In this document: positions 20,337-35,563 of the stretch, one piece after another
Numbering within the stretch: position 1 is the first letter of the stretch
Layout of the letters: every line of letters starts with the position of its first letter
Virus record (IMG/VR): IMGVR_UViG_3300020079_000009
Strand: one strand, 5' to 3'
Source of the DNA: a virus
DNA length: 64,000 nucleotides
Notes under the pieces: generated by a model
What the model saw: only the letters and a program-made list of their open reading frames with translations
The model's database searches: none
What the model was told of the DNA's origin: nothing
Program-made: the position numbers and the translations under genes

Positions 20337-20545
20337 TCTTGTGGGGAGTTATTTCCACAATTACATTTATTCCACATATGCCTGCATGCAAAGAGCTTAG
20401 CAGCGCAGATAAATTTACAGTTATGGTCATATTTTTAATCGGAGGGCCATTTTTTGCAATATCTAATATTCTTGAAGAATTATTAAATTGCATTATGCCA
20501 CCTGGTTGGGGAGGAGACGACGATGATTTCTTCAACAAATACTAA
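20312..20545 (+). CDS. small two-TM membrane protein
   Basis: 77-aa ORF with two hydrophobic segments and acidic C-terminus GGDDDDFF. Confidence 0.35.
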   Translation: MAGTWIAIILWGVISTITFIPHMPACKELSSADKFTVMVIFLIGGPFFAISNILEELLNCIMPPGWGGDDDDFFNKY

Positions 20546-21380: not shown

Positions 21381-21382
21381 AA

Positions 21383-21646: not shown

Positions 21647-21648
21647 TT

Positions 21649-21987: not shown

Positions 21988-22397
21988 AAAGATTGGGTTC
22001 CGTACCATTCGGTATGGGACCCATTTCTTATTTTTCCCGTAAACCGAAATCTGAAATTGATTTAGTGGGAGGTTTGTCCAGGAAATAACATTTCATCAAC
22101 AATAAAAAAAAATTTTCCCGAAATACACCCCCCCGGGTATGTTGGCATACACAGCACAGGCACACACACAGACAGAGAGGTACGCCCCTCTCTACGCCCT
22201 ACAGAGCTACGCACATGTACATACAAAGAGATACATACACAATGACCAAGAGGTAATGAGTACATAACACATACACATCTATCTATACATACAACAATAG
22301 ATAATAATAATAAATAATAAACAACACAATGATGTACATACTAATACATACGCTGGGCCGTGCATGGATGGCGCGGCCCTGGTTGGCATGGTATACA

Positions 22398-22468
22398 TCT
22401 TGCACAAATAAAGGGCGCAACAATTGTGCAAATCTACCTATTGACAAACCTCCCGAAACGTGTTATAC
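22398..22468 (+). promoter_or_regulatory. class-3 promoter (TTGACA-17-TATACT) with upstream inverted repeat TGCACAA-N16-TTGTGCA (candidate operator)
   Basis: cTTGCACAAataaagggcgcaacaaTTGTGCAAatctacctaTTGACAaacctcccgaaacgtgtTATACT. Confidence 0.55.
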
Positions 22469-22503
22469 TAAGGGTACAACAAAGGAAGAGAGAGGTACAC
22501 ACA

Positions 22504-22839
22504 ATGAAACACATCAGCACAATCTACGTAGTAAGAAACAATGAGACACACAGACACACCTACTATACTAAGGAATGCGCACCTGCTGAAGCAAGACCTA
22601 TGCTTTACCACACAAGCAAGACTATCAACGTACACCAAGAGGATGGCACAGTGCGCACAGCATACATGTACGGAGAGAAGAGCTACAGCTACGACGCAAC
22701 AGAGGTAGCACAGTACAAAGAAGCACAAGCAGCTAAGAGACAGAGAGAAGCAGAGAGAAAGGCTATGCTTGCTACTATCATGACACACTATGAGGCAATG
22801 GATACTGAGGCACTGGCTAAGGTAATAGCTACTCTGTAA
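22504..22839 (+). CDS. hypothetical protein (within the T-depleted compositional island)
   Basis: Promoter TTGACA-17-TATACT at 22440-22468, RBS GAGAGAGG, ATG 22504. Coding strand almost devoid of T at many codon positions. Confidence 0.4.
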   Translation: MKHISTIYVVRNNETHRHTYYTKECAPAEARPMLYHTSKTINVHQEDGTVRTAYMYGEKSYSYDATEVAQYKEAQAAKRQREAERKAMLATIMTHYEAMDTEALAKVIATL

Positions 22840-22996
22840 GGGTAGCTACCGTGTGCGGCCCTGCTATCCCTAACTGCCACAGAGCCAGGAGGCACAGAAA
22901 AAAGTCTGCACAAACGTGTAAAAAAAGCTTGACACAAACCTCCTGTAATGGTATAATAAAGATACAAAGAAAGAAGTAAAGAAAGAGGTAGATACA

Positions 22997-23287
22997 ATGA
23001 GTAAGAGAGTAACAGAGATGATGACTATACTGTTGGTAGTAGTAGTGTTCATGGGCATGCTGGGGCTGTGCGGCTACGTAGAGACACACTACACACGCAA
23101 GGACTGCGTAGTAGTACACACAGAAGGACAGCTTGCAGAGGTAGAGGACAAGCAAGGACATGTGTGGTGCTATGAGGTAGAGGGCACAGCACCAAGCGTA
23201 GGCACAGTGGTAGATGTACACATGTACACAGCACACACTGATGGATACATCTATGATGATGAGGTAGTAGGAGTAAGCACACACTAA
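22997..23287 (+). CDS. small membrane protein
   Basis: Promoter cTTGACAcaaacctcctgtaatggTATAAT at 22929-22957, RBS GAGGT, hydrophobic N-terminus. Confidence 0.4.
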   Translation: MSKRVTEMMTILLVVVVFMGMLGLCGYVETHYTRKDCVVVHTEGQLAEVEDKQGHVWCYEVEGTAPSVGTVVDVHMYTAHTDGYIYDDEVVGVSTH

Positions 23288-23517
23288 TGCAGTGTGTGCT
23301 ACTACACACTACTACTAATACTACACTAATACAGAAAGACCGCCATAGGCGCGCGCACGGTCCTGGCGCGCCTGATTGGTGCTATTGTAAAACCTGCACA
23401 AAAAAGGCTTGCAAAATCGGCGTAAATTTGTGTAAAATAAATCTCCCAAAACCCTTGACAAAATACCTGCGCGCATGGTATACTATAGATACAAAGAAAG
23501 AGAGAGAGGTACAACCT

Positions 23518-23772
23518 ATGAACACTTATACTATCTACATTAACAACAACGCTATCGCTACTATTAGTGGTACTGAAGCTTGCTATGCTTGCTACGAAGC
23601 AGCTAAGACCATCGCAGAGATGACTTGCCAGACTGCTTCCCTTGTGTGGGATGAAACTGGCGAAGTAGTAGCCTTCTACGACCCTGAGGAAGAGGACTAC
23701 GAAGAGCCTGCTGACATTGATGACGATTTTGGCTTTGACCCTTACGAAGGATGTTACACTTATGATTGCTAA
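23518..23772 (+). CDS. small acidic Cys-containing protein
   Basis: Promoter at 23456-23486 (TTGACA...TGGTATACT), RBS GAGAGGT, ATG 23518; 84 aa. Confidence 0.4.
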   Translation: MNTYTIYINNNAIATISGTEACYACYEAAKTIAEMTCQTASLVWDETGEVVAFYDPEEEDYEEPADIDDDFGFDPYEGCYTYDC

Positions 23773-23860
23773 AAAAAAATTAAAAAAGGGGCTTGACAAA
23801 AAGCCCCCTCCATGTTATAATAAAGATACAAAAAAGGAAAACAAAAGGAGACTGATAACT

Positions 23861-24286
23861 ATGATGTGTGCAAGTGAACTGGCAATTGTGAGAAATGCAA
23901 GCGTAATGAAGTGGGAAAAAGAAAAGGCAGAAAGTCTTGCTCGTCTGTTGGGTGCGAGTGTTGAATTCTGTGAAACTGAGATTGGACCTGCCCTTGAGAA
24001 GCAGGCTCTCAACCCTAAGGGTGGACTGATTTCAACTTCTATTGACCTCGCTATGGCTTCCGATGCTTACGGCAACGAGGTACTGCGTCCTATTCGTTTC
24101 GATGGCAAGAAGTATGCAAATGGAGATTGGAGTTATTCTCCTTGCACTGACAAGAACTATCACAAGACTTTCATTGAAGAGTATCTTGCTCAGCATTGTC
24201 TGTCTGTAAGGTGGGAAGAAACTACTTACAATCGCTATGGTTTTGGCTCTTGCCGAGCTTACAAACTGATTGTTGAAGTAAAGTAA
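23861..24286 (+). CDS. hypothetical protein
   Basis: Class-1 promoter at 23794-23821 with -35 inside the GGGGCTT...AAGCCCC hairpin; RBS AAGGAG; ATG 23861. Confidence 0.45.
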   Translation: MMCASELAIVRNASVMKWEKEKAESLARLLGASVEFCETEIGPALEKQALNPKGGLISTSIDLAMASDAYGNEVLRPIRFDGKKYANGDWSYSPCTDKNYHKTFIEEYLAQHCLSVRWEETTYNRYGFGSCRAYKLIVEVK

Positions 24287-24365
24287 AAAAATGCAAAAAG
24301 GGGTTGACAAACTCAACCCCTTGTGCTATAATAATTACAGAAAGAAACAGAAAGAAGTGGTAAAA

Positions 24366-24698
24366 ATGGCTTACGGATGTTATTCAGAAGTGTATTACGC
24401 AGAACATTTAGAAATTAGAACGGCAATCAAAATTGGGGAAACGACTAATGCAAGGCGTAGAAGTAATCAGTTGCTCCAAGAAGATTATTTAATTCTTCAA
24501 TCATTAGACATTGGCGGCGGAGAATGCGAAAGGCTATTTGTAGAAAGTTTTTTGCGAATGAAAATTCTAAAAACACAAAAGGCTCGGCGCATTCGCAAAG
24601 ATTATTTTAATTGCGCTGATCTTGATACAGTAGAATTTATTAAATCTCACTTTCAAGAGTGGGTAATGGAAGCAATAACAACAATGAGGGGAATGTAA
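24366..24698 (+). CDS. T5orf172/GIY-YIG-like domain protein (putative)
   Basis: Motif IKIGETTNARRRSNQL resembles the KIGxT...R..QL core of the T5orf172 (GIY-YIG-related) domain. Class-1 promoter at 24304-24332. Confidence 0.4.
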   Translation: MAYGCYSEVYYAEHLEIRTAIKIGETTNARRRSNQLLQEDYLILQSLDIGGGECERLFVESFLRMKILKTQKARRIRKDYFNCADLDTVEFIKSHFQEWVMEAITTMRGM

Positions 24699-24770
24699 AA
24701 ATTCCCCTTGACAATCAATTAAAATTATGGTATAATAATAATACAAAGAAAAGAAAAGGAGATAGATACA

Positions 24771-24980
24771 ATGGGTGAAGGTTGTTTGATGGTAATTCTC
24801 GCGCTGGCACTGGTGTTCGGCGTTGTGTGTTTCGAGGCATGGATTGGGATGCTTCTGTTTAACTGGGTGATGAGCCTGTTCGGCTGTGCGTTTGCTCTAA
24901 CATTTTGGCAGGCTTTCGGCATCTGCGCTCTGCTCAGTTTTGTAGGTGGCTTTTTCAAATCGAGTTCCAAGAGCAATTAA
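24771..24980 (+). CDS. small hydrophobic membrane protein
   Basis: 69-aa, two TM segments; class-1 promoter at 24709-24739; followed by intrinsic terminator 24983-25011. Confidence 0.45.
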   Translation: MGEGCLMVILALALVFGVVCFEAWIGMLLFNWVMSLFGCAFALTFWQAFGICALLSFVGGFFKSSSKSN

Positions 24981-25011
24981 GGAGAGGGGAAACCCTCTCT
25001 TTTTATTTTTT

Positions 25012-25130
25012 CGGCCGCGCGCTGTCGGCTGTGGCGCGCGGTGTTTCTGCCAAGAGGTAATCTGCACAAAAATCTCGTGGAAAATTTGTGCAATTTTGTG
25101 CTTGACAAACATCCCGAAATGGTGTATACT
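25012..25130 (+). promoter_or_regulatory. class-3 module: GC-rich hairpin (25012-25041) + operator TGCACAA(25063)-N16-TTGTGCA(25092) + promoter TTGACA(25102)-17-TATACT(25130)
   Basis: Coordinates worked out by hand; the half-site TTGTGCA is repeated a third time right before the -35. Confidence 0.55.
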
Positions 25131-25160
25131 TAAGGTACAAAAGATGAGGGGGTAATAACT

Positions 25161-25343
25161 ATGATGATGAACATTACTATTGACAGACCTTGGAGCGAAC
25201 AGCCTGAGGAAGTACGCAACGCAATCGACGAACAGACTTACAACAAGGTTGCTGAGGTTCTCGGCATTAAGTTGGTAAGTCGCAAAAAATGGTACGAAAA
25301 GGTATTGACAAACATCTCAAAGTATGGTATACTTAGAGCATGA
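25161..25343 (+). CDS. small hypothetical protein (3' end overlaps the next promoter)
   Basis: Class-3 promoter at 25102-25130, RBS GAGGGGG. C-terminal codons ...EKVLTNISKYGILRA are encoded by a TTGACA-17-TATACT promoter. Confidence 0.35.
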   Translation: MMMNITIDRPWSEQPEEVRNAIDEQTYNKVAEVLGIKLVSRKKWYEKVLTNISKYGILRA

Positions 25344-25359
25344 AAGGGGGATACTAAAG

Positions 25360-25683
25360 ATGAAACCTATGAATACTACATTCCACGCAGGAGTGGAACG
25401 AGCAAACCGACTGCAAGCATTGGAAGAAGTTCTCGGCTTCACAAACCCTGTGCTTGAAGTTGAAGTAATTGAAGAAGAAAAGAGGTACTTGCTAACCAGT
25501 AGTGGAATTATCATTGTTAAGAATTTGTATCGTGACATTGTGATAACTGCATTTATGGCAAATGTCAATCAGTGCTATCGTCTTTACAGAATGGCGGGCA
25601 AGGGGCAGATGTCACCTAAAATGGAAAAGCGAGTAATGAAAAATTGTCAAAGACATCCAGAATTATTTACGATTAGGGGTTGA
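25360..25683 (+). CDS. hypothetical protein
   Basis: RBS AAAGGGGGA, ATG 25360 (MKPMNTTFH...). Confidence 0.4.
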   Translation: MKPMNTTFHAGVERANRLQALEEVLGFTNPVLEVEVIEEEKRYLLTSSGIIIVKNLYRDIVITAFMANVNQCYRLYRMAGKGQMSPKMEKRVMKNCQRHPELFTIRG

Positions 25684-25741
25684 CAAAACCCCTAAGCCGT
25701 GGTATAATAATTACAGAAACCAAGAGAGAGGAATTGATACT

Positions 25742-26155
25742 ATGAAGAAATTAGTAAACCTTAGATGCTATGCGGCAATCGGCAATGATGACTACTGCGA
25801 CACTTCCATTTGGAATCACATTCGCTATGTGGAAGTTGGCGAGTGTAACACGACAGAATACACACTCGAAACCTTTGAAGAAGCATTTGCGGCAGTTCGT
25901 GACCACAGAATCAGAAATGCAGAAACTGGTTGCACTCTATTTCGCAATCGTCCGACCATCGAAATTGGTTGGGGCGACTTCTACAGAAACAAAAGCAAAA
26001 TGACAGAAAAGACTTTCAAGCCCATTCGTGTCAGGTGGGAATGGGAAGAGGTTACAAGAATGTACACAATGAAAGACCTTGCGGACTTGCTCCCTGCTGA
26101 ACAGTTCTGCGAATGGTTGAAAGACAGAGGGATTACAATGGTTGGCTCGATGTGA
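25742..26155 (+). CDS. hypothetical protein
   Basis: Class-1 promoter at 25680-25708, RBS GAGAGGAATTGATACTATG. Confidence 0.45.
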   Translation: MKKLVNLRCYAAIGNDDYCDTSIWNHIRYVEVGECNTTEYTLETFEEAFAAVRDHRIRNAETGCTLFRNRPTIEIGWGDFYRNKSKMTEKTFKPIRVRWEWEEVTRMYTMKDLADLLPAEQFCEWLKDRGITMVGSM

Positions 26156-26262
26156 GCCAACCGCCCGTACAAAATAAATTAAAAAAGTTTTGAAAAACCT
26201 ATTGACAAACCCACGAACCTATGTTATAATAAATACAGAAATTGAGAGAGGAATTGATAACA

Positions 26263-26937
26263 ATGAACAAGAAAATTATTTACTGCACACTTGATACTGA
26301 AACTGTTGGCGGAGCTTCTAATCCTACTGGAATGTACAACCTCGGTTGCACTATCCACGACAGAGAGGGCAACATTTTCGCAACCGCTTCTCTGCTTGTA
26401 ATGGAACACTATGACGAAATCGCACAGGACGATTACGCAAAGAAGAACTTCCCTATCTATCGCGAAAGACTGATGACTGGCGAAATGTCTGCGGTGGCTA
26501 CCGAAGCCGAAGCACTTTCCATCGTTCGCAACCTTTGCAAGTTCTATGGTGTTCGCTATGTAATGGCTTACAACTCTGCTTTCGACTTTACCAAGACTAT
26601 TTGCAGAGAACTGCTCGACGAGTTTGAGTTCATCGACATTTACTTGATGGCTTTGCAGACCATCTGCCACAAGAAAGGCTTTGCGAACTTCTGCCACGAG
26701 AATGGCTTCCAGTCCTCTTCCAAGAAGTCTTGCTCTACTACTGCACAGACTGTCTATGGCTTCATCACTGGAAATGCTGACTACATCGAAGAACACACTG
26801 CACTGGCTGACGCACTCATCGAAATGGAAATCTTTGTGGCTTGTCTGAAAATGCACAAGAAATTCAACAAGAACATTCACCAGTGGGACGCAAAGGGCAG
26901 AGAGTACAACAAGTGCTTTCCGAAGTGGGTGGACTAA
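26263..26937 (+). CDS. DEDDh 3'-5' exonuclease (DnaQ/RNase T-like) paralog 1
   Basis: Exo motifs YCTLDTETVG (Exo I D-x-E), AYNSAFDF (Exo II), HTALADALIEMEIF (Exo III with His). Class-1 promoter at 26203-26230. Confidence 0.7.
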   Translation: MNKKIIYCTLDTETVGGASNPTGMYNLGCTIHDREGNIFATASLLVMEHYDEIAQDDYAKKNFPIYRERLMTGEMSAVATEAEALSIVRNLCKFYGVRYVMAYNSAFDFTKTICRELLDEFEFIDIYLMALQTICHKKGFANFCHENGFQSSSKKSCSTTAQTVYGFITGNADYIEEHTALADALIEMEIFVACLKMHKKFNKNIHQWDAKGREYNKCFPKWVD

Positions 26938-27048
26938 GTCCCCCACTTTCCCCGGTCAAAAAAAATAAAAAACTTTTCAAAAACCTATTGACAAACACGA
27001 AAATCCATGCTATAATTAAGATACAAAAAAGGAAAGGAAGTAAACACA

Positions 27049-27498
27049 ATGAAGACTATGAACATCACAATCAACTTTGACATGGACGGCACAATCGCTG
27101 ACCTCTATGGAGTAGAAAACTGGCTCGAATACCTCATCGCAGGCGACACATTCCCTTACGCAAACGCAAAGCCTCTGCTTAGACTTGCAACTCTCGCTCG
27201 CAGACTTAACACTCTCCAGAGAAATGGCTACAACATCGCAGTTATCTCTTGGCTGAGCAAGAGTGGCACAGAAGAATACAACAGAGCAGTTACCGAAGTC
27301 AAAATGGATTGGCTCAAGAAACATCTGCCAAGTGTCAACTGGAACGAAATCCACATTGTACCTTACGGCACACCAAAGCAGAACTTCTGCAAAACTCCTC
27401 TCGATGTGCTTTTCGATGATGAAGAACGCAACAGAACAAACTGGACTGGCAAGGCTTATGATGTGCAGAACATCTTGGAAATTCTCGCAGAAATGTGA
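27049..27498 (+). CDS. HAD-superfamily 5'(3')-deoxyribonucleotidase-like hydrolase
   Basis: N-terminal HAD motif I FDMDGTIADLYG (DxDGT) and overall NT5C-like size; class-1 promoter at 26988-27016. Confidence 0.6.
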   Translation: MKTMNITINFDMDGTIADLYGVENWLEYLIAGDTFPYANAKPLLRLATLARRLNTLQRNGYNIAVISWLSKSGTEEYNRAVTEVKMDWLKKHLPSVNWNEIHIVPYGTPKQNFCKTPLDVLFDDEERNRTNWTGKAYDVQNILEILAEM

Positions 27499-27571
27499 GA
27501 ATTTCCCCTTGACATTTTCAAACCGTTGTGCTATAATTTAATTACACCAAGAGGAAAGGAACTGATACCCC

Positions 27572-27790
27572 ATGATGATTAACACGAATGAACCCACTTG
27601 CCCCACTTGCGGCGGCTCCCTCATTTCTATCTCACACTACGATGTTGAAGACCTCGACACAGGCACAATCGCAATGAGCGTGGTCGGTGGCTGTGACCAC
27701 TGTGGCAACACCTATGAATGGGTTGAGTATTACGCCTACAAGGGTCACGCAGACATCAAGCCCACCCAAATCAGGGCGAGAGCAATTTGA
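27572..27790 (+). CDS. small zinc-ribbon protein
   Basis: CPTCGG...CDHCGN pairs; class-1-like promoter at 27505-27535; terminator at 27776-27805. Confidence 0.45.
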   Translation: MMINTNEPTCPTCGGSLISISHYDVEDLDTGTIAMSVVGGCDHCGNTYEWVEYYAYKGHADIKPTQIRARAI

Positions 27791-27805
27791 CGCTCTCGCC
27801 TTTTT

Positions 27806-27958
27806 GGCGCGCCGCCCACGACCCAGGCGGCACGAATTTCCATTATAACACTTCCTCAGCATTTTGTCAATAGGCAATTTGCACAAAGTTGCGAGAGGTC
27901 AAATTCCTGAAATTTGTGCATTTTGACTATTGACTTCTATTGGGGAGTGTGTTATACT
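27806..27958 (+). promoter_or_regulatory. class-3 module with divergent promoters: GC hairpin 27806-27834; antisense promoter (minus strand) -35 at 27865-27870 and -10 at 27842-27847; operator TGCACAA(27880)-N27-TTGTGCA(27920); sense promoter TTGACT(27930)-17-TATACT(27958)
   Basis: Reverse complement reads cctaTTGACAaaatgctgaggaagtgtTATAATgg, a perfect class-1 promoter firing leftward into the GC hairpin and the preceding gene terminator. Confidence 0.5.
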
Positions 27959-27964
27959 GTACTT

Positions 27965-28055
27965 ACAGATGAGGGGTGAGGTTTAATGCTGAGCCGCTCA
28001 AGCAGAAAGGGTTCAAACCCCTTGGGGGACGCCCCTAAAAGCCCCTCATCTTTTT
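27965..28055 (+). ncRNA. candidate ~90-nt small RNA (or leader with tiny ORF) from the class-3 promoter, enclosed by a long-range stem GATGAGGGG...CCCCTCATC plus U5 terminator
   Basis: The gene-less transcript begins GTCAG-type conserved start, has internal hairpins, and ends in a T-run at 28051-28055; only an in-frame run-on ORF (27986) with no independent support. Confidence 0.35.
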
Positions 28056-28144
28056 CAAAAAAAATAAAAAAAGTGCTTGACAAACGGTCAATGCGGTGCT
28101 ATAATAAAGATACAAAGAACGGAACAGAAAAGGAGACAGGAACA

Positions 28145-28633
28145 ATGACTAAGGGAAACGCAATCAGATACTACAGAAAGTTTAGTGGCGCACAGGGTTA
28201 CATCCTCGGTTTCACTTACAAGAAGAAGAACTACATGGCAATCGTTGATGAAATCATGCCTCGCTTCATTCGAGTAGAAAAAGAAGCAAGCAAAAAGGGT
28301 GGCAAGGAAAAGCTTCAGCTTCGACTGACTAATCAGCACATGGAACAGCTCATTCGCAAGGGCGCAATCGAAATCGACTACGAAGTAACCAACGGCAACA
28401 ACGGCAGAAACTTTGAAATGTGGGTACAGAGATACTTCGGTCAGGTCGCAAGAGATTGGGATAATGACGGCTTTTGGGTTGGTGGTGATGTCAATGTGAA
28501 CGGCATTGAGTATCAAATCAAATTCAACGGCGCACAGATTGTCACTTTCGACACTCTCCACAATTTGCAGAAGTGTGGCAAGGACTACAAAAACTATGTG
28601 CCTAAGCGTGGCAGAAAGAAAAAAGTTGCCTAA
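28145..28633 (+). CDS. hypothetical protein (162 aa)
   Basis: Class-1 promoter at 28078-28106, RBS AAAAGGAGA, ATG 28145 (MTKGNAIRYY...). Confidence 0.45.
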   Translation: MTKGNAIRYYRKFSGAQGYILGFTYKKKNYMAIVDEIMPRFIRVEKEASKKGGKEKLQLRLTNQHMEQLIRKGAIEIDYEVTNGNNGRNFEMWVQRYFGQVARDWDNDGFWVGGDVNVNGIEYQIKFNGAQIVTFDTLHNLQKCGKDYKNYVPKRGRKKKVA

Positions 28634-28687
28634 GGGGGTTGACAAACCCCCAAAGGTATGCTATAATAATACCAAGAGGTGAGATAA

Positions 28688-28849
28688 ATGAAAAAGAAGA
28701 AAACCATTGACAATCGCATTTTTAAGAAAGAGGGCGAAGAACTGCAACAGTATTTGCACTTTCGCAAGCGTGGGTCGGTAGTCGAGAACAAAAAGGGCAA
28801 AGGCTCGTACAATAGAAAAAAGTTCAAGAAAATTGAAAAAGACTATTGA
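28688..28849 (+). CDS. small lysine-rich protein (53 aa); 3' end overlaps the next promoter
   Basis: Promoter gGTTGACAaacccccaaaggtatgcTATAAT, RBS GAGGTGAG, ATG 28688. Not in the ORF track (<60 aa). Confidence 0.3.
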   Translation: MKKKKTIDNRIFKKEGEELQQYLHFRKRGSVVENKKGKGSYNRKKFKKIEKDY

Positions 28850-28907
28850 CAATTAAATAAAAATGTGGTATAATAATTATAGAAAATAAAGAAAAGAGGT
28901 TGTTACT

Positions 28908-29153
28908 ATGAAAATGTTTTCCGAAATGAGTTTGAAATCTATCCGCAACAAGTTGGCAAAGGTTGGGGTCACAATGAGTGACGAGCAGTTCAATGCTCTT
29001 ACCTACTCCGAGTTGAAGAAAGTCTATCGCAAGGCGAGCAAGGCTTACAAACTCTATGAGCAGGTTGATGCAATCATCACCAAAGCACAAGCTCCCACTC
29101 CGCAGATGCCCTTGACCAATGACAGTCCCAAGAGCGTAAGCGCAAAAAAGTAA
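28908..29153 (+). CDS. hypothetical protein (81 aa)
   Basis: Class-1 promoter at 28846-28875, RBS AAGAGGT. Confidence 0.4.
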   Translation: MKMFSEMSLKSIRNKLAKVGVTMSDEQFNALTYSELKKVYRKASKAYKLYEQVDAIITKAQAPTPQMPLTNDSPKSVSAKK

Positions 29154-29228
29154 AAAATGGGGGTTGACAAACCCCCAAACCTATGCTATAATACAAGTAC
29201 AAACCAAAAGAAAAGGAGAATGATACTA

Positions 29229-29381
29229 TGAGTATTCGAGAAGTAGCAAATGCACTGAATGAGATTCGCGCAAACATGAGCAACCCCGAAGGTATGGTGG
29301 TTGCGTCCATCACAAAGGACGAAGTCATTTTTGAGAATGGGGTTGCCTATTCGCTGACAACGAAGCAGAGAACGCGATAAG
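29229..29381 (+). CDS. small hypothetical protein (50 aa)
   Basis: Class-1 promoter at 29165-29192, RBS AAAGGAGA, ATG 29229; terminator at 29385-29412. Confidence 0.3.
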
Positions 29382-29429
29382 GAAGAGCGAGGGGAAACCC
29401 TCGCTTTTTCCATTTCAAAATCCAAAATG

Positions 29430-29590
29430 CATCGGCCGGTCCACGTGCGCGCGGACCGGTGTTTTGGCCTAACCTTCCATTATAACATTTTTCGAGCAAT
29501 TTGTCAATAGGCAAAATGCACAAAGATTTTCCTGTAATTTTGTGCAATTTGCCACTTGTATTTTGGTGGCTGATGTGGTATACTATTATT
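29430..29590 (+). promoter_or_regulatory. class-3 module (GC hairpin CCGGTCC..GGACCGG, antisense promoter, operator TGCACAA-N16-TTGTGCA, TGGTATACT promoter) not followed by a gene
   Basis: Same architecture as 27806-27958; downstream transcript ATTATTGTCAGTAAGGGAGAG... has no ORF before the next class-1 promoter. Confidence 0.5.
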
Positions 29591-29639
29591 GTCAGTAAGG
29601 GAGAGAACAAAATCCCATCAAAAAGATTTTGAAAAAACC

Positions 29640-29870
29640 TATTGACAAAATAAAAAAATTATGTTATAATTATTATAGAAAAAAGGAAAAAGCCATTACC
29701 AAAAAATTTCTAAAAAAGTTTTGAAAAAGGTATTGACAAATCCTAAAGAGTATGCTATAATAGTTATACAAGGTAAGGGAAAACCTACTGAGAGGTCAAC
29801 AAAAAAAATAAAAAAAAAGTTGAAAAAACCTCTTGACAAACAACTCCCAATGTGCTATAATAAGAATGTA
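29640..29870 (+). promoter_or_regulatory. three tandem class-1 promoters (TTGACAAA-N16/17-TGnTATAAT) separated by <60 nt with no intervening ORFs, upstream of paralog A1
   Basis: ttgacaaaataaaaaaattatgtTATAAT; ttgacaaatcctaaagagtatgcTATAAT; ttgacaaacaactcccaatgtgcTATAAT. Each is preceded by an AAAAAAGTTTTGAAAAAACC(T/C) UP-like element. Confidence 0.55.
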
Positions 29871-29937
29871 AAGAGGGACACCTCTTACAGAATAAAAACT
29901 TGGGTCGTGACCTACCACGAGATTGGAGATTGATACT

Positions 29938-30297
29938 ATGGCAAACACTAAGAAGATGACTAAGCGTGAGATGTTCGAGCAGATTAAGGCTTCCTACCCT
30001 CTGACTGAGGCTGAGGTTGAGTTCATTGACCACGAACTCGAACTGCTCGCAAAGAAGAACAGTGCCGAGAAGAAGCCTACCGCTGTGCAGGTGGCTAATG
30101 AGGGCATTAAGGGCGACATTGTCGCAGGTATGGAGCAGGGTAAGTCCTACACCATCACTGACCTGATGAAGACCATTCCTGCCTGTGCCGAACTGAGCAA
30201 CCAGCGTGTGTCTGCTCTTGTTCGTCAGCTCGTCACTGATGGCGTGGTTGTGCGAACTGAGGAAAAGCGTAAGGCTTATTTCTCCCTCGCTGACTAA
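29938..30297 (+). CDS. winged-helix-like protein, paralog A1 of a triplicated family
   Basis: MANTKKMTKREMFEQIK... is ~75-80% identical to the products of 33663..34022 and 34524..34883. C-terminal TITDLMK..LSNQRVSALVRQLVTDG..RTEEKRKAYFS resembles a winged HTH. Confidence 0.6.
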   Translation: MANTKKMTKREMFEQIKASYPLTEAEVEFIDHELELLAKKNSAEKKPTAVQVANEGIKGDIVAGMEQGKSYTITDLMKTIPACAELSNQRVSALVRQLVTDGVVVRTEEKRKAYFSLAD

Positions 30298-30385
30298 GGG
30301 AAAAAAGTCAAGGGGAAATGCAAATTTCCCCTTGACAACCCCTTTGATGTGTGGTATAATGTAATTACAGAAAGGGGGATTGCCT

Positions 30386-30766
30386 ATGACAGCATCCGAG
30401 AGAGAAAAACTGATTGCCAAGCACATGGGTCTGTTAGGTATCAGCCGAGAGGAAGCCGAACAGTTGGTCGCTGATGATGAAGCAATCGACAAGGGAGCAA
30501 AACTCTTTGAGTTGAGTGCCGAGCAAGAAAAGGCAAGCAAAAAGGCAAGAGCCATTGGAACAAAGACCACCACCACAACCAAGACCACAACCAAGAGAGA
30601 ACGCAAAGCCGACAACGACAAGGCAATGCTGATTGACGAAATCAAGCAAGCCCTTGAGGGATTGGAAAGCATTGAGGGAATTGAGGTTACGAACGCCGAG
30701 AGGGAAATGCTTTTCCACTGCAATGGGCGAAAGTTTAAGGTGGTACTGTCTGCCCCTCGTTCCTAA
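30386..30766 (+). CDS. partner protein B1 (paralog of 35007..35375)
   Basis: MTASEREKLIAKHMGLLGISREEAEQLVADDEAIDKG... aligns with ..LMKNLGISEEEALQVIADDKAIDRG.. Thr/Lys-rich linker. Confidence 0.5.
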   Translation: MTASEREKLIAKHMGLLGISREEAEQLVADDEAIDKGAKLFELSAEQEKASKKARAIGTKTTTTTKTTTKRERKADNDKAMLIDEIKQALEGLESIEGIEVTNAEREMLFHCNGRKFKVVLSAPRS

Positions 30767-30789
30767 CTTGTCAATGGGCGAAAGTCACA

Positions 30790-30970
30790 AACTTTCGCCC
30801 TAATTTTTGTGCATTTTTACCACTTGACAAATCGGGCCGGCTGTGGTATAATGGCCGCCCGTGCACAAGTGCGCGGGCCGGTATTCCTGTCAATAGTTAA
30901 TTTCAACAAAAATGCGGGCGAAAATTTGTGCAAATTGCCTATTGCAAAATCTCCCGAAACGTGGTATACT
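30790..30970 (+). promoter_or_regulatory. class-3 module with two promoters (TTGACA..TGGTATAAT inside a GGCCGGC hairpin, then TTGCAA-17-TATACT) and TGCACAA motifs
   Basis: cacTTGACAaatcgggccggctgtggTATAATggccgcccgTGCACAAgtgcgcgggccgg ... aaaatTTGTGCAaattgcctaTTGCAAaatctcccgaaacgtggTATACT. Confidence 0.5.
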
Positions 30971-30994
30971 AATAATGTCAGGAGGGATAGAACG

Positions 30995-31240
30995 ATGTTA
31001 GAACTGAACCAAGAGGAAAAGAAAGTAATCGAAAAGGTAGTTGACGGAATGACAGAATGCGGTCTGTTCTGCGGTCGGTACGATGCAAAGAATGGCAATG
31101 AGCATTTCATGTATGGGGTGAGCACTGTAATGGAATACCTCGCCTATCTTGTCAGCGATGAGTATGGGGATGAGTTCTCCGATGCTTTTACAAAAAATAT
31201 GATAAAAAGTGAAAAAAAGGTATTGACAAACGAGCATTGA
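30995..31240 (+). CDS. hypothetical protein (81 aa); C-terminus overlaps next promoter (..KKVLTNEH)
   Basis: Class-3 promoter at 30937-30970, RBS GGAGGGA, ATG 30995. Confidence 0.45.
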   Translation: MLELNQEEKKVIEKVVDGMTECGLFCGRYDAKNGNEHFMYGVSTVMEYLAYLVSDEYGDEFSDAFTKNMIKSEKKVLTNEH

Positions 31241-31283
31241 TGTGCTATAATAATTACAGAAAGAAACGAAAGAGGTAAACGCT

Positions 31284-31757
31284 ATGAATACACAGTTACT
31301 TATTACATTTATCATTCTTAACATTCTGAATGTTATCATTCAGACAGTGAAAAGTATCGCCACTGTGAAGTGCGGTAAAGGGGTCGCCGCAATCGTAAAT
31401 GCTGTTGCTTTTGGTCTTTACACAATTGTCACTGTTTACTTAATGTGTGAACTTGACCTTTACTTAAAGGCTGGCATTGTGGCTCTGTGCAACCTTGTTG
31501 GTGTGTATGTTGTTAAGTGGTGCGAAGAAAAGGCACGCAAGGACAAACTTTGGAAAGTTGAAGCAACTGTTCCCCACGAATGGACTGACGCAGTACATTT
31601 TGATTTGAAAGACATTCCCCACAACTATGTGGAAAATGTTGGAAAATATACCCTTTTCAATTTCTACTGTGCAACACAGAAAGAGAGTGCAAAGGTGCGT
31701 GACATTCTCGCACAGTATGAAGTGAAGTATTTTGTGAGCGAAAGCAAGACCCTTTAA
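31284..31757 (+). CDS. membrane protein (3 TM N-terminal + soluble C-terminal domain)
   Basis: Class-1 promoter at 31224-31252, RBS AAGAGGT; hydrophobic N-terminal half. Confidence 0.5.
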   Translation: MNTQLLITFIILNILNVIIQTVKSIATVKCGKGVAAIVNAVAFGLYTIVTVYLMCELDLYLKAGIVALCNLVGVYVVKWCEEKARKDKLWKVEATVPHEWTDAVHFDLKDIPHNYVENVGKYTLFNFYCATQKESAKVRDILAQYEVKYFVSESKTL

Positions 31758-31863
31758 TGGGTCAGCTTTTCGCCCGGGCGCAAAATATTTTTCAAAAACC
31801 TATTGACAAATCAAAATGAAAGTGCTATAATAATTACAGTTGATACGAAAGGATTTGATACCC

Positions 31864-32601
31864 ATGGCTCGCAAGAAAGAATTATTTTTAATCATCGACA
31901 CTGAAACAGCAAACACCATTGAACAGCCTTTGTGCTATGACATTGGCTATGCAATCTGTGACAGACAAGGCAAGATTTACCTTGAAAGAAGTTTTGTGGT
32001 TTCTGAAATGTTCCTCGACCACAAAGACTTGATGCAAAGTGCCTACTTTGCTGAAAAGATTCCCCAGTATTGGGATGACATTAAAAATGGCACTCGCACT
32101 TTGAAAAGCATTTTCAACATTCGCAAGCAAATCCATGAGGACATGAAAAAGTATTCCATTCGCAAGGTGGGTGCTTACAACATGGGTTTTGACAAGAGAG
32201 CATTGAATAATACAATTCGCTATTGTTCTCAATCTCGCTGGCGTTGGTTCTTCCCTTGGGGAACTGATTACATTTGCATTTGGAACATGGCTTGTCAAGT
32301 GGTTCTCAATCAAGTTTCCTATGTAAAATTTGCTTTACAGAATGGTTTAATTAGCGAAAGCGACAACATTCAGACAAGTGCTGAGGCTTGTTACAAGTTT
32401 CTGAAAAAGCAAGTTGATTTTGTGGAAAGCCACACAGGACTTGAGGATGTGAGAATTGAAGTTGAAATTCTCGCAAAGTGTTACGCAATGCACAGAAAAC
32501 TTGAAACTAAAATTTCCCCTGCGTGTTGGAGAATCCCCCAGAGAACACGCAAGGAAATGGACTTGAAAAAAGTTTTCAAAAATAGTGGGGAAAGGGCTTG
32601 A
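31864..32601 (+). CDS. DEDDh 3'-5' exonuclease paralog 2
   Basis: LIIDTETAN (Exo I), AYNMGFDKRAL (Exo II), HTGLEDVRIEVEIL (Exo III); class-1 promoter at 31803-31832. Confidence 0.65.
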   Translation: MARKKELFLIIDTETANTIEQPLCYDIGYAICDRQGKIYLERSFVVSEMFLDHKDLMQSAYFAEKIPQYWDDIKNGTRTLKSIFNIRKQIHEDMKKYSIRKVGAYNMGFDKRALNNTIRYCSQSRWRWFFPWGTDYICIWNMACQVVLNQVSYVKFALQNGLISESDNIQTSAEACYKFLKKQVDFVESHTGLEDVRIEVEILAKCYAMHRKLETKISPACWRIPQRTRKEMDLKKVFKNSGERA

Positions 32602-32659
32602 CAAAAGCCCTCCCCCATGGTATAATGAATACAGAAATTAAGGAAAGAGGTTGATACTA

Positions 32660-32818
32660 TGTTAGAACTTATTTGTCAAATTCCTGACCACATCGGTTGG
32701 GTGCTCGTTGGTGTTGTTGGCTGTCTGTGTGTGCAGATGCTTGGTCTGTTGATTGGTACTACCATCCAGGCAATCAAGGAACGAATTGAAGACCGCAACG
32801 AGGAATGCGAGGGTTAAT
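32660..32818 (+). CDS. small membrane peptide (52 aa)
   Basis: Promoter TTGACAaaagccctcccccatggTATAAT, RBS AAAGAGGT; hydrophobic core; terminator 32806-32832. Confidence 0.3.
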
Positions 32819-32844
32819 CCCTCGCTTTTTTGTTTGAGATTTCA

Positions 32845-33000
32845 GCGCCGCGCGCACGAACGTAGCGCGCGGAATTTACCATTATACCATACCCCGGCAT
32901 TTTTGTCAAGAGAAAATGTGCACAAAGATCGAGAAATAAAAATCCTGTAATTTGTGCATTCTGTCTATTGCAATCTGCTTCTGGATGTGGTATACTATCT
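32845..33000 (+). promoter_or_regulatory. class-3 module (GC hairpin CCGCGCGC..GCGCGCGG, antisense TTGACA-17-TGGTATAAT promoter on minus strand, operator, TGGTATACT promoter)
   Basis: Reverse complement is cTTGACAaaaatgccggggtatggTATAATggtaaattccgcgcgc... Confidence 0.5.
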
Positions 33001-33099
33001 ATGTCAGGTGAGGGGAGCACCCAAGAGGAGCTCAAAAAAACTTTGAAAAAAGTTAAAAAACCTCTTGACAAATAGCGCCGAGTGTGCTATAATAAATAC

Positions 33100-33300
33100 A
33101 GAAGTTAAGGGAAGCGACCCGAAGAGGGAAGCCCACGAGAGCGATGTAAGACTTCCCCCTTGAGCCAAGGCTCTTGCTTCTGACCGCAAGGTGTTCGCGT
33201 TTGCGGTATACAAGTGTGAACCAGTGCCCCAGAGGTTGAAGTAATAGGGGATTATGCGCGATACAATACCTCACACAAAAAAGTCAAGAATCTTGAAAAA
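33100..33300 (+). ncRNA. candidate noncoding RNA 1 (~200 nt, purine-rich, GC-rich relative to flanks) transcribed from the class-1 promoter at 33065-33093
   Basis: No RBS-preceded ORF; GC ~55% versus ~38% background; multiple local hairpins (e.g. ACCGCAAGGTGTTCGCGTTTGCGGT); ends at the next promoter. Confidence 0.4.
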
Positions 33301-33340
33301 AGGTCTTGACAAATACCGCAAAGTGTGGTATAATGATTAC

Positions 33341-33560
33341 AGTCAAGAGGGGAACCTTGACAGCGAAAGCCACCAAGGACAGTGGAAACAGACACGAAGC
33401 GAACTGAAACCCAAAGGATACACGAATCCCAGTAGCCCCCACAGAGCGTGGCAAAGCGATTGCGTGGTGAGGGTAGACTTAGGGCTGGGCCAGCAACAAG
33501 GCTGAGAAGTGGGCGAGTAGCGAAGATAAGAAAAAAAGTCGCGAATTTTTTTCGAAAACC
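33341..33560 (+). ncRNA. candidate noncoding RNA 2 (~220 nt) from the class-1 promoter at 33306-33334
   Basis: Purine-rich, no plausible ORF start with RBS; ends with AAAAAAAGTCGCGAATTTTTTT near the next promoter (33563-33591). Confidence 0.4.
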
Positions 33561-33662
33561 TCTTGACAAATCAAACCCCATGTGGTATAATTAAGATGTT
33601 CCAAGAGAGGAACGAAACTTCAAAAAGGGTCGCAACCAATAGCGAGAAATGGAGACGATACT

Positions 33663-34022
33663 ATGGCAAATGTTAAGAAGATGACTAAGGCTGACTACTT
33701 CCGCCAGATTATGGCAAACTACAACCTCACTGCTGACGAAAAGGCTTTCGTTGAGCATGAGCTGGAGCTTCTGGCAAAGAAGAACTCCGCAGAGAAGAAG
33801 CCGACTGCGGTTCAGGTCGCAAATGAGGGTATCAAGGCTGACATCCTCGAAGCCATGGAGAGTGGCAAGAAGTACACCATTACTGACCTCATGAAGAGTG
33901 TCGATGCGTGCGCTGACCTCTCCAATCAGCGAGTGAGCGCACTGGTGCGCCAGCTGGTTACTGAGGGTTCTGTGGAGCGCACTGAGGAGAAGCGCAAGGC
34001 TTACTTCTCCAAGGTGGACTAA
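33663..34022 (+). CDS. winged-helix-like protein, paralog A2
   Basis: MANVKKMTKADYFRQIM... paralog of A1/A3; promoter at 33563-33591. Confidence 0.6.
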   Translation: MANVKKMTKADYFRQIMANYNLTADEKAFVEHELELLAKKNSAEKKPTAVQVANEGIKADILEAMESGKKYTITDLMKSVDACADLSNQRVSALVRQLVTEGSVERTEEKRKAYFSKVD

Positions 34023-34039
34023 GGGCAAGGGGCGCAAGC

Positions 34040-34270
34040 CCCTCCCTCCCCTCTCTCAATTTTCACTTGACCCCTGGGGTGATTCGCTCCCCTGGGGGTT
34101 TTGTGCATTTTGCACAAAGCGCCGGCCCGGTCACGGCCAGCGTGACCGGAATTTTCCATTATACCACCGGCCGCAAATTTTGTCAAGAGAAAAGTTGCAC
34201 AAAAAATAAAAAATAATTTTCCTAAAATTTGTGCATTTTGACACTTGTATTTTCTCTTGGTCTGTGGTAT
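34040..34270 (+). promoter_or_regulatory. class-3 module: terminator GGGGCGCAAGCCCC, adjacent palindrome TTTGTGCAtttTGCACAAA (34108-34128), GC hairpin CCGGTCACG..CGTGACCGG, antisense promoter, operator TGCACAA-N..-TTGTGCA, TGGTATACT promoter with no downstream gene
   Basis: Near-identical to the 29430-29640 module (duplicated cassette). Confidence 0.5.
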
Positions 34271-34523
34271 ACTATTATTGTCAGTAAGGGAGAGCCGAAT
34301 TGATAGAGGTCAAAAAAAGTTTTTAAGAAATTTCAAAAAACCTCTTGACAAATCCCCCAAGATGTGCTATAATGAATACATCAAAGGGAGAGAGAAGTCA
34401 ACAGAGAGTTGAGAAAAAAAATAAAAAAACTTCAAAAAACCTCTTGACAAATCGCTCAACCTATGATATAATTAAATCATCAAAGGGAAGGAAAACCCAA
34501 CAAACCAGAAAGGAATTGATACT

Positions 34524-34883
34524 ATGGCTAATACTAAGAAGATGACTAAGAGAGAAATGTTTGAACAGATTAAGGCAAACTATGCCTTGAACGCAGACGA
34601 GATTGCGTTCATCGACCACGAGTTGGAATTGCTCGCAAAGAAAAACTCTGCTGAAAAGAAACCTACTGCTGTACAGGTTGCCAACGAAGGCATCAAGGCT
34701 GAAATCCTTGAAGGTATGGAAGTCGGCAAGAAGTACACTATCACAGATTTGATGAAGTCTGTGCCTGCGTGTGCAGAGTTGTCCAATCAGAGAGTGTCTG
34801 CCCTTGTCAGACAGTTGGTAACTGATGGCTCTGTTGAGAGAACAGAGGAAAAGAGAAAGGCTTACTTCTCCAAAGTAGCCTAA
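34524..34883 (+). CDS. winged-helix-like protein, paralog A3
   Basis: MANTKKMTKREMFEQIKANYALNADEIAFIDHELELLAKKNSAEKKPTAVQVANEGIK...; promoters at 34348-34378 and 34443-34471. Confidence 0.6.
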   Translation: MANTKKMTKREMFEQIKANYALNADEIAFIDHELELLAKKNSAEKKPTAVQVANEGIKAEILEGMEVGKKYTITDLMKSVPACAELSNQRVSALVRQLVTDGSVERTEEKRKAYFSKVA

Positions 34884-35006
34884 CTCCCCCAAGGGGGCAG
34901 AAATGCCCCCTCCCCTAAAAGGGCGGTAGAAAAAAATTTTGCAAAACCCCTTGACAGATAGCCTTAACTGTGCTATAATAAGGGTACAGTAAAGGAGTTG
35001 ATAACT

Positions 35007-35375
35007 ATGACAGAACAGGTTGCAAAGCTGATGAAAAATTTGGGTATCAGCGAAGAAGAGGCTCTGCAAGTCATCGCAGACGATAAGGCAATCGACAGGG
35101 GCGAGCGAATGTCCTTCGACCTTTCCAAAGAAGAAGAGAAAGCCGCCAAGAAGTACGCAAATGTGGGCGAAAAAACTGTGAAAACCCCACGAAAAGCGCC
35201 AGTTCGCAAGGAAAATGCGACAAAATCGCAGATAATTGCAGAAATTTCGGCATTTTTGAGCGAAAAAGGCTACGAAATGGTCGAAATCACCAATAAAGAG
35301 CGCCAAATCGCCTTCAAAGTTGGTGAAAATGACTATGAATTGACCCTTGTGCAGAAAAGAAAGCCGAAAAAGTAG
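35007..35375 (+). CDS. partner protein B3 (paralog of 30386..30766)
   Basis: Class-1 promoter at 34941-34969, RBS AAGGAG, ATG 35007. Confidence 0.5.
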   Translation: MTEQVAKLMKNLGISEEEALQVIADDKAIDRGERMSFDLSKEEEKAAKKYANVGEKTVKTPRKAPVRKENATKSQIIAEISAFLSEKGYEMVEITNKERQIAFKVGENDYELTLVQKRKPKK

Positions 35376-35404
35376 AAAAATCGCCCCAAAAGGGCGATTT
35401 TTTC

Positions 35405-35538
35405 GTCATTTTGCACAAAAACCGGCCGTTTTCGCCTGCGGCGGGCCGGAATTTCGTCAATTAGCAGATTCCACAAAGTTTTGGAGCGAAAATTGTGCAA
35501 AATTACCTGTTGACATTTCTCCCGAAATGGTGTATACT
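35405..35538 (+). promoter_or_regulatory. class-3 module (TGCACAAA, GC hairpin CCGGCC..GGCCGG, TTGTGCA, TTGACA-17-TATACT) driving gene 35564
   Basis: cgtcatttTGCACAAAaaccggccgttttcgcctgcggcgggccgg...aaaatTGTGCAaaattacctgTTGACAtttctcccgaaatggtgTATACT. Confidence 0.5.
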
Positions 35539-35563
35539 ATGTATAGAAAGTGAGGGAAACAAA

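Follow-up and report, generated by a model that had tools for sequence, protein, structure and literature searches.

A recurring module of operator-like repeat, promoter and GC hairpin in the probable early region of a large gut phage

The 64-kb window analysed here, the whole of a 64,000-nucleotide stretch of IMG/VR virus record IMGVR_UViG_3300020079_000009, is a segment of a large uncultivated phage, and its rightward genes are punctuated by a repeated module built from a terminator, a GC-rich hairpin, an inverted repeat and a promoter. Structural genes and a phage sigma-like gene run leftward over 1-19.9 kb, and the genes beyond 19.9 kb are oriented rightward. The small genes between 22.4 and 36.8 kb nearly all have a promoter and a terminator of their own; 33 perfect TTGACA-17-TATAAT promoters lie on the + strand there, nearly all of them with an extended -10. 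The portal protein is 53% identical to a homologue on a human-faecal contig and 38% identical to the portal of phAss-1, a 136-kb human gut phage with a predicted Clostridia host, and its more distant relatives belong to ~140-kb Enterococcus phages and to Brevibacillus and Bacillus phages, none of them T4-type. A published analysis inferred siphovirus morphology for the phAss-1 group from a long tape-measure gene. A megablast search of 22-36 kb against GenBank phages gave no match; close syntenic relatives are found in gut metagenomes, and the gene content between modules differs among them. The source is evidently a large siphovirus-like phage of gut Clostridia, and the modules sit in its predicted early, host-takeover-like region.

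A first-pass annotation of this DNA had described a recurrent regulatory module in eight copies. Alignment and enrichment statistics show that the module is real and recurs as a unit far beyond chance; the eight copies stand, but the total is nine, the copy at 23348-23484 having been missed. The order shared in the module alignment is an upstream terminator (usually), the GC hairpin, TGCACAAA, a spacer, TTTGTGCA, a gap, the -35 and a TATACT -10. The operator spacer is 14, 24 or 25 nt, the gap 9-10 nt (20 in M2) and the promoter spacer usually 17 nt. Whole modules are only ~45% identical overall, yet these motif islands are kept at fixed spacing. The nine modules are:

M1, 22355-22469, + strand: GC hairpin 22355-22379; repeat TGCACAAA-N14-aTTGTGCA 22401-22430; -35 TTGACA 22441-22446; TATACT 22464-22469; TCCCGAAA inside the promoter spacer; neither a canonical upstream terminator nor a leftward promoter
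M2, 23348-23484, + strand: GC hairpin 23348-23372; TGCACAAA 23395-23402, N24 and TTTGTGtA 23427-23434 (a right half-site that is TTTGTGCA in relatives); -35 TTGACA 23455; TATACT 23479-23484; promoter spacer 18 nt
M3, 24979-25130, + strand: terminator 24979-25002; GC hairpin 25015-25041; N14 repeat 25063-25092; -35 25102; TATACT 25125-25130; no leftward -10
M4, 27775-27958, + strand: terminator 27775-27805; GC hairpin 27806-27834; N25 repeat 27880-27920; -35 TTGACT 27930; TATACT 27953-27958
M5, 29386-29584, + strand: terminator 29386-29405; GC hairpin 29436-29459; N14 repeat 29517-29546; -35 TTGTAT 29556; TATACT 29579-29584; leads into three tandem perfect promoters and then winged-helix gene 1
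M6, 30776-30970, + strand: terminator 30776-30800; GC hairpin 30854-30882; degenerate repeat TcaACAAA-N14-TTTGTGCA 30903-30932; -35 TTGCAA 30942; TATACT 30965-30970; a forward perfect promoter (-35 30824, -10 30847-30852) fires into the module's own hairpin, with a lone half-site (30807-30813) 10 nt upstream
M7, 32807-32996, + strand: terminator 32807-32825; GC hairpin 32848-32872; N24 repeat 32919-32958; -35 TTGCAA 32968; TATACT 32991-32996
M8, 34071-34273, + strand: terminator-like hairpin 34071-34103; additional short head-to-head repeat 34101-34117; GC hairpin 34127-34149; N24 repeat 34196-34235; -35 TTGTAT 34245; TATACT 34268-34273
M9, 35375-35538, + strand: terminator 35375-35403, which looks bidirectional; lone half-site 35412-35418; GC hairpin 35422-35449; degenerate repeat TcCACAAA-N14-aTTGTGCA 35470-35499; -35 TTGACA 35510; TATACT 35533-35538; a leftward -35 remnant is kept, with no -10

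The frequency of the half-site of the inverted repeat, TTGTGCA, had been set beforehand as the observation on which the module claim could fall, and it proved well above expectation: 28 occurrences in the window against 12.3 +/- 3.1, a number that 0 of 100 shuffles reached. Of these sites 23 fall within 22398-35540 (binomial 5e-12), and 20 are in the nine modules, whose share of the window is 2.5% (2e-26). The paired arrangement TGCACAA-N10..35-TTGTGCA occurs six times where 0.01 would be expected. The inverted repeats reported earlier, with spacings given as 16 and 27 nt, are present; measured between 8-mer half-sites, the spacers are 14 nt in M1, M3 and M5 and in the degenerate M6 and M9, 24 nt in M2, M7 and M8 and 25 nt in M4. 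A head-to-head repeat that had been placed near 30869 dissolves on inspection into a lone half-site, at 30862, in a hairpin loop.

The repeat is held in a strict relationship to the promoters around it. Of 13 promoter flanks, 10 have 9 nt between half-site and -35, two have 10 nt, and that of M2, the sole outlier, has 20 nt; four leftward promoters, described below, mirror the rightward ones exactly about the operator. With halves 22 or 32-33 bp apart, centre to centre, the repeat presents both on one face of the helix. The operator is wholly upstream of both -35s; its promoter-proximal half-site occupies about -52 to -45 and leaves the -35, the -10 and +1 free. We scanned IMG/VR for the repeat with spacers of N12-27 and obtained at least 120 loci; among the matches listed, after dereplication, N14 accounts for 55, N24 for 31, N13, N15 and N25 for 7-8 each and any other spacing for 0-4. 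Loci from phages of the same family (one mismatch, N10-29) use only N14 (37), N24 (28), N25 (4) and N23 (1). The spacer sequences are unrelated and the two favoured lengths are one helical turn apart, which argues for a protein that touches both halves on one face of double-stranded DNA and not for an RNA stem. The fixed spacing and promoter gap bear out the earlier suggestion of a protein operator tied to promoters: as judged from its sequence, the repeat is a conserved operator-like element, linked to promoters, that behaves as a true protein operator.

Other motifs accompany the operator. TCCYGAAA is not enriched window-wide (seven occurrences against 5.9 expected), and five of the seven stand at fixed places in modules. 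Either TCCCGAAA or TCCTGAAA is found between -35 and -10 in the N14-type modules (22451, 25112, 30952, 35520); in N24/25 operators it is found beside the promoter-proximal half-site (27905 in the window), likewise in other phages. CodY boxes in the spacers were considered and, from the sequence alone, rejected, the resemblance being partial only and the left half absent in relatives. Spo0A boxes (TGTCGAA) occur four times in the window against 7.7 expected, none inside a module, and the half-site TGTGCAA differs from that box in its central dinucleotide. A full-text literature search for the half-site strings returned only primers and unrelated text. Seven contigs of ~13-14 kb (L007, L014, L038, L042, L062, L072 and L112), which have no genes in common with the window phage, carry one N24 operator at both contig ends; this probably represents the overlap of circular assemblies.

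The rightward promoters next to the repeat form a distinct set within the window. All nine have TATACT as their -10, which is found in only one of 34 other promoters (Fisher 2e-8; the exception is at 25305). As the class separator that the first-pass annotation took it for, TATACT is almost clean in this window but not in related phages, where the repeat-adjacent promoter tends to a -35 of TTGCAA, TTGTAA or TTGTAT and has a -10 that is usually TATAAT or TATTAT. TATACT is thus a lineage trait and not a class trait. Nor is the full promoter TTGACA-17-TATACT, as once described, general: TATACT is constant, but only four of the nine modules have TTGACA at the -35, the others having TTGACT (one), TTGTAT (two) or TTGCAA (two). 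The rightward repeat-flanked promoter is sub-consensus in all nine modules, amid perfect unregulated promoters. An operator that is upstream and in phase, combined with weakened promoters, fits positive control, or dual control of the kind exerted by the p4 protein of phage phi29, better than it fits a classical repressor. We would accordingly place activation of the rightward promoters and restraint of the strong leftward ones ahead of steric repression; the proposal that these are repressor-controlled early promoters is less favoured, the operator being clear of the core promoter and the flanked promoters falling short of consensus. Behind the TATACT promoter of M4, at 27960-28058 on the + strand, lies a non-coding stretch of ~95 nt that folds (z -3.1) into a closed multi-stem structure with a terminator at its end; Rfam gives no match for it, and it may be a small RNA.

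Four modules also carry a perfect leftward promoter, TTGACA-17-TATAAT, facing away from the operator:

M4 leftward perfect promoter, 27842-27870, - strand: TTGACA 27870-27865, 17-nt spacer, TATAAT 27847-27842; -35 at 27870, 9 nt from the left half-site; predicted start ~27835, at the hairpin foot
M5 leftward perfect promoter, 29479-29507, - strand: -35 at 29507, 9 nt from the half-site; predicted start ~29472
M7 leftward perfect promoter, 32881-32909, - strand: -35 at 32909, 9 nt from the half-site; predicted start ~32874
M8 leftward perfect promoter, 34158-34186, - strand: -35 at 34186, 9 nt from the half-site; predicted start ~34151

At least five had been counted before, and a leftward start had been proposed at ~25045; the copy concerned, 25012-25130, has no leftward promoter. 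What survives of the antisense claim is that four strong promoters start at the foot of the hairpin and point into the terminator of the upstream gene, while the short length assigned to their RNAs is unproven. The two promoters of a module had been called a convergent pair; they diverge around the operator, and the leftward one converges with the upstream gene only. The predicted leftward RNAs fold well, those of three of the four promoters with z-scores of -3.2 to -4.3.

The GC hairpin is present in all nine modules (70-85% G+C in a region of 42%), and the stem sequences quoted for it in the first-pass annotation are correct. In many contigs it forms part of a unit in which a perfect promoter is followed by roughly GGAAAATTCGG and then by the hairpin, within a few bases of the predicted start. 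Forty-five non-redundant promoter-hairpin units, selected on composition only, have a mean z of -2.16 against dinucleotide shuffles (Stouffer -14.5); for the nine hairpins of the window z is -0.5 to -2.7. The stems, which are almost purely Watson-Crick, differ in every copy. Between orthologous hairpins of close relatives there are seven double compensatory pair changes, and the folding energy of each orthologue stays within -12 to -20 kcal/mol, which indicates that the pairing is under selection. A canonical terminator in the unit's own direction (hairpin with a T-run downstream) is found in only 3 of 39 non-redundant units, and 11 of the 39 meet only the reverse side of a neighbour's terminator. 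Among family loci the unit goes with N24 sites (13 of 31) and seldom with N14 sites (2 of 36, M5 being one such case).

Several known kinds of hairpin were considered and, from the sequence alone, set aside: N4-type hairpin promoters (the stems and loops are too long here, and sigma-A promoters are present), decoy RNAs resembling CRISPR repeats (the stem sequences differ in every copy) and RNase III sites (for which stems of 7-11 bp are not long enough). With Rfam, only two tRNAs in the window pass the gathering score, and nothing credible appears in 22-37 kb at E <= 1. An IMG/VR scan for more hairpin units, with GAATTT-N0/1-CCATTATA, returned mostly chance matches from unrelated environments and was not used. 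Two other phages (L076 at ~6280-6330; L113 at ~4090, - strand) have a pair of perfect promoters on opposite sides of one GC hairpin, firing towards each other, their -10s ~45-50 bp apart; promoters placed in this way would exclude each other or make complementary short RNAs.

Comparison with two relatives, L121 and L123 (80-92% identical), showed where the region breaks and rejoins. Collinearity is lost at 27870, the leftward -35 of M4; at 30986, just after the M6 promoter; at 34187, at the leftward -35 of M8; and at 35566, just after M9. Two further breaks, at 29378 and 24687, are terminator-promoter joints. At the M4 and M8 positions of L121 the hairpin and the leftward promoter stay in place, and the repeat and TATACT promoter are replaced by an A/T-rich, UP-element-like tract and a consensus promoter. 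Such half-module swaps indicate that the module is built from separable halves.

The operator is not confined to phages. A scan for TTGCACAAA-N14-TTTGTGCAA in one genome per prokaryotic species found at least 120 loci, where a rough estimate of chance gives about ten. Among the matches listed, ~110 are in Clostridia (Oscillospiraceae, Acutalibacteraceae, Ruminococcus, Lachnospiraceae) and only 3-5 belong to the phage family of the window. In 12-13 of the 120 loci listed, a TetR-family gene is divergent from a gene for a class-III aminotransferase and the site lies ~20 nt from the TetR start codon; the other contexts among them include a conserved gene for a 43-amino-acid peptide (11), extracytoplasmic function (ECF)-type sigma genes (5) and transporters. 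A TetR gene is missing beside most chromosomal sites, and no TetR homologue was found in the window by tblastn, nor in the viral contigs at a sensitivity suited to close relatives. In Ruminococcus bromii ATCC 27255 (L171, 560-1290) a ~700-bp stretch of non-coding, internally repeated DNA beside a tyrosine recombinase gene contains four N14 operator-like sites, of which one is exact and each of the others has a single mismatch. The repeat probably marks an undescribed regulator. More than 100 chromosomal loci suggest a host regulon, which these phages may read so as to set the timing of their early programme or to gate it, much as phi29 uses Spo0A. It is doubtful, though conceivable, that TGCACAAA-N14/N24-TTTGTGCA is specifically the site of an unnamed Oscillospirales/Lachnospiraceae regulator wired into a repeated phage early switch, and that the units in which a promoter fires into a GC clamp, whether single, back-to-back or face-to-face, constitute a new class of element, either polymerase-loaded insulators or a family of 5'-hairpin RNAs. 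The regulators of the Oscillospirales are almost wholly uncharacterised; if the operator is what it seems to be, a helically phased site of 30 or 40 bp offers a handle on transcription control in gut Clostridia phages and in their Oscillospirales hosts.

A phage protein could also occupy the site. The region encodes three winged-helix paralogues:

29938-30297, + strand: winged-helix paralogue 1, 119 aa, downstream of M5 and three tandem perfect promoters
33663-34022, + strand: winged-helix paralogue 2, downstream of M7 and three perfect promoters
34524-34883, + strand: winged-helix paralogue 3, downstream of M8 and two perfect promoters

The 119-amino-acid protein has roughly 6000 homologues in gut metagenomes. 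Its structural model (pLDDT 83) weakly resembles the MarR, ArsR and TubR winged-helix proteins (E ~1e-3, TM 0.4-0.47), and sequence searches of the PDB and PHROGs returned nothing. It is a candidate for the operator-binding protein or for an abundant DNA-binding protein. Of 22 cases in the family, 11 have a winged-helix gene at 150-705 nt downstream of a repeat module, an association that is suggestive and not clearly above module density. The tandem perfect promoters that feed the three genes (29642/29733/29833, 33065/33306/33563 and 34345/34444, + strand) are ~100-250 nt apart, and most have an A-rich upstream tract of the form AAAAAGTTTTGAAAAAACCTCTTGACAAA; such an arrangement implies very high winged-helix expression. 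An AbrB-like protein (21383-21646) and a 204-amino-acid winged-helix protein (38529-39143) are further phage candidates. Since the operator is a general Clostridia motif, the regulator may be of host type and not one of the phage proteins proposed earlier, and we regard a host-type regulator as at least as likely as the phage winged-helix protein.

The surroundings of the modules contain further features of the phage and of its early region:

18801-19853, - strand: sigma-factor-like phage protein (phrog_5767, E 3e-53), its gene heading the leftward structural set
19907 (- strand) and 19928 (+ strand): divergent promoter pair beside the sigma-like gene
20523-21987, + strand, just upstream of M1: FolD-like methylene-tetrahydrofolate dehydrogenase/cyclohydrolase, AbrB/MazE-fold protein and stand-alone S24 peptidase-like protein
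26263-26937 and 31864-32601, + strand: paralogous pair, exonuclease-like (phrog_20187)
30386-30766 and 35007-35375, + strand: second paralogous pair, function not assigned
24298-24322, 28633-28652, 29158-29177 and 30307-30336: examples of terminators fused to the next -35
33094-33300, 33335-33545 and 36403-36670, + strand: GC-rich and 200-270 nt long; a perfect promoter precedes each stretch, and none has a convincing open reading frame

The two paralogous pairs and the winged-helix triplet point to segmental duplication within the early region. Many terminator hairpins hold the -35 (TTGACA) of the next gene in their loop or 3' arm, so that terminator and promoter are physically fused. The three GC-rich stretches have unremarkable folding z-scores and no Rfam match; the one at 36403-36670 contains repeated CCGATCGG.

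We see about an even chance that the nine modules are composite transcription-control cassettes, in each of which an operator-controlled divergent-promoter switch doubles as a joint for cassette shuffling. A protein dimer, or a dimer of dimers, seated at about -49 and at -71 or -81 would contact RNA polymerase in the zone of the UP element and the alpha subunit's C-terminal domain (alpha-CTD). It would switch on the weak rightward promoters as a delayed class and, where a strong leftward promoter is present, would restrain it, following the logic of p4 and Spo0A at the phi29 promoters A2b-A3. The GC hairpin, the upstream terminator and a polymerase that loads head-on from the leftward promoter would together insulate the regulated promoter from read-through of constitutively expressed early genes; the hairpin would also be the 5' hairpin of the leftward RNA, and the conserved cassettes would serve in addition as homology patches for the exchange of gene cassettes. 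For the hairpin, such an insulator role would fit the observations at least as well as a discrete small RNA. Several observations weigh against this proposal. All of the promoters are consensus calls, and in four of the nine regulated promoters the -35 is perfect and the -10 extended, so that these may be active without an activator. The M5, M7 and M8 promoters feed transcripts that tandem perfect promoters serve as well, which blurs any temporal class. Some chromosomal sites overlap the TetR gene's own promoter or leader, an arrangement that looks like repression. The hairpin lacks a proper U-tract on either strand, making its terminator activity conjecture; its stability shows no strand bias (22 versus 17 units, p = 0.22), so functions at the level of RNA and of DNA are not separable; and five of the nine modules have the hairpin but no leftward promoter, which indicates that its role goes beyond antisense RNA.

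It is possible, if rather unlikely, that the operator instead belongs to a repressor that shuts off early promoters, with the leftward promoters making short structured antisense RNAs that silence upstream genes as small RNAs or interfere with their transcription. The repeat is real, the four perfect leftward promoters face the 3' ends of upstream genes and most of the predicted RNAs fold well; moreover, the bacterial repeat overlaps the leader or promoter of the TetR-family gene in a layout typical of autorepression, and Spo0A represses phi29 A2b from an upstream position by blocking the alpha-CTD (PMC2731898). Against this, the operator is clear of -35, -10 and +1 and the promoters beside it are weak, not strong; leftward canonical terminators are as rare as 3 in 39 units, the hairpin has no strand bias and is found without a leftward promoter in five modules, and L121 keeps leftward promoter and hairpin without any repeat. 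We consider it decidedly unlikely that the modules are chiefly mobile or recombinogenic promoter-terminator joints like the promoter-early stem-loop (PeSL) cassettes of T4-type phages, their repeat and hairpin being kept mainly as homology patches or recombination targets. Breakpoints do coincide with module features, L121 carries a substituted right half at M4 and at M8, inter-module gene content varies among syntenic relatives, IMG/VR contigs often end at the repeat, and PeSL provides a precedent (PMC2839356). Against this, the modules, only ~45% identical overall, keep motif islands at fixed spacing and have covarying stems, and the spacer sequence is free although its lengths of N14 and N24 persist strictly in unrelated contigs and in bacterial chromosomes. 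Fixed motif spacing, kept spacers and covarying stems are signatures of function and not of mere homology, and the regulatory and recombination roles are compatible. Finally, it is very improbable that the repeats serve a non-transcriptional process at the level of DNA, such as partition, genome organisation or replication, with the winged-helix protein in a TubR-like array and the hairpins as cruciform or origin elements. The weak likeness of the model to TubR extends to MarR and ArsR also; the three paralogues behind tandem perfect promoters imply very high abundance, and almost purely Watson-Crick stems without strand bias would suit a DNA structure. The structural matches are feeble, though, a half-site stands a constant 9-10 bp from the -35 on either side, which links the repeat to promoters, and the repeat occurs at many ordinary chromosomal promoters without a winged-helix gene.

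In kind, the elements described here are familiar: phage promoter-terminator cassettes, divergent-promoter switches and cis-antisense promoters. The operator with two phased spacings, its spread in Clostridia and their phages, and the unit in which a promoter fires into a GC hairpin appear to be undescribed in Rfam or in the searchable literature; units of this last type could serve as reusable insulator parts for Firmicutes. The divergent-promoter switch of phi29 is a close parallel to the arrangement that we favour. There, p4 recruits polymerase to A3, a promoter without a -35 that diverges from the early promoter A2b, and host Spo0A, whose binding sites form part of this virulent phage's promoters, binds between A2b and A3 and represses A2b by denying the alpha-CTD its UP element (PMC2731898). 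M4, M5, M7 and M8 likewise have back-to-back promoters of unequal strength, each 9 nt from a half-site of the common operator, and like the weak A3 their rightward promoters are poor at the -35 (TTGACT, TTGTAT or TTGCAA, with TATACT), the leftward ones being perfect. The inverted repeats bound by p4 are spaced by about two helical turns, as is the N14 form of the present operator. The motif, however, differs from p4's CTTTTT-N15-AAAATG, five modules have the rightward promoter only, nine copies with two alternative spacings are spread across the early region in place of one central switch, and the strong promoter drives only a hairpin RNA and not an operon. No p4 homologue was identified, no search aimed at p4 having been made, and no p4-like name appeared in Pfam and PHROG scans of ~25 window proteins.

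The resemblance to other systems is more partial. Like lambda oop, the leftward unit has a dedicated promoter and an RNA antisense to the 3' end of a convergent neighbour; unlike oop, it is multi-copy with a stem free to vary in sequence, mostly lacks a canonical terminator, carries its hairpin at the extreme 5' end and has its promoter paired with an operator and a divergent gene promoter. The element shared with the Oscillospirales TetR operator, TTGCACAAA-N14-TTTGTGCAA, is identical, but no cognate TetR was found with it in the window or, at a sensitivity suited to close relatives, in the viral contigs, and a separation of 22 bp between half-sites is unusual for one TetR dimer. In the host-takeover module of SPO1 and in the layered early and middle transcription of T4, dense strong host-type promoters each serve one or two small genes with their own terminator, and some of these genes also have, interleaved upstream, a promoter of a second, factor-dependent class, in T4 with a MotA box in place of the -35 and in SPO1 with a new sigma specificity. 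The present region has the same dense strong promoters and interleaved second class; unlike those phages, its second class keeps -35 and -10 and has an upstream inverted repeat.

In T4-type phages, orphan genes are flanked by PeSL cassettes of a strong promoter and a stem-loop, and the copies recombine with one another (Arbiol et al. 2010, PMC2839356). These cassettes lie in hyperplastic regions of T4-type myoviruses and form mini-circles, and their stem-loop is an effective transcription terminator. The modules studied here are also small repeated cassettes of sigma-70-type promoter and G/C stem-loop that flank small genes of unknown function in a plastic region, and the indels and replacements between close relatives map to them. 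A sigma-A-type promoter is present in every module, and a perfect promoter besides in four or five. They differ in belonging to a siphovirus-like phage of Clostridia and not to a T4-type myovirus, in their additional operator and second, divergent promoter, and in a hairpin that has no U-tract and follows a separate canonical terminator. The position of the breakpoints at these cassettes extends the idea of cassette shuffling from T4 to an unrelated phage lineage.

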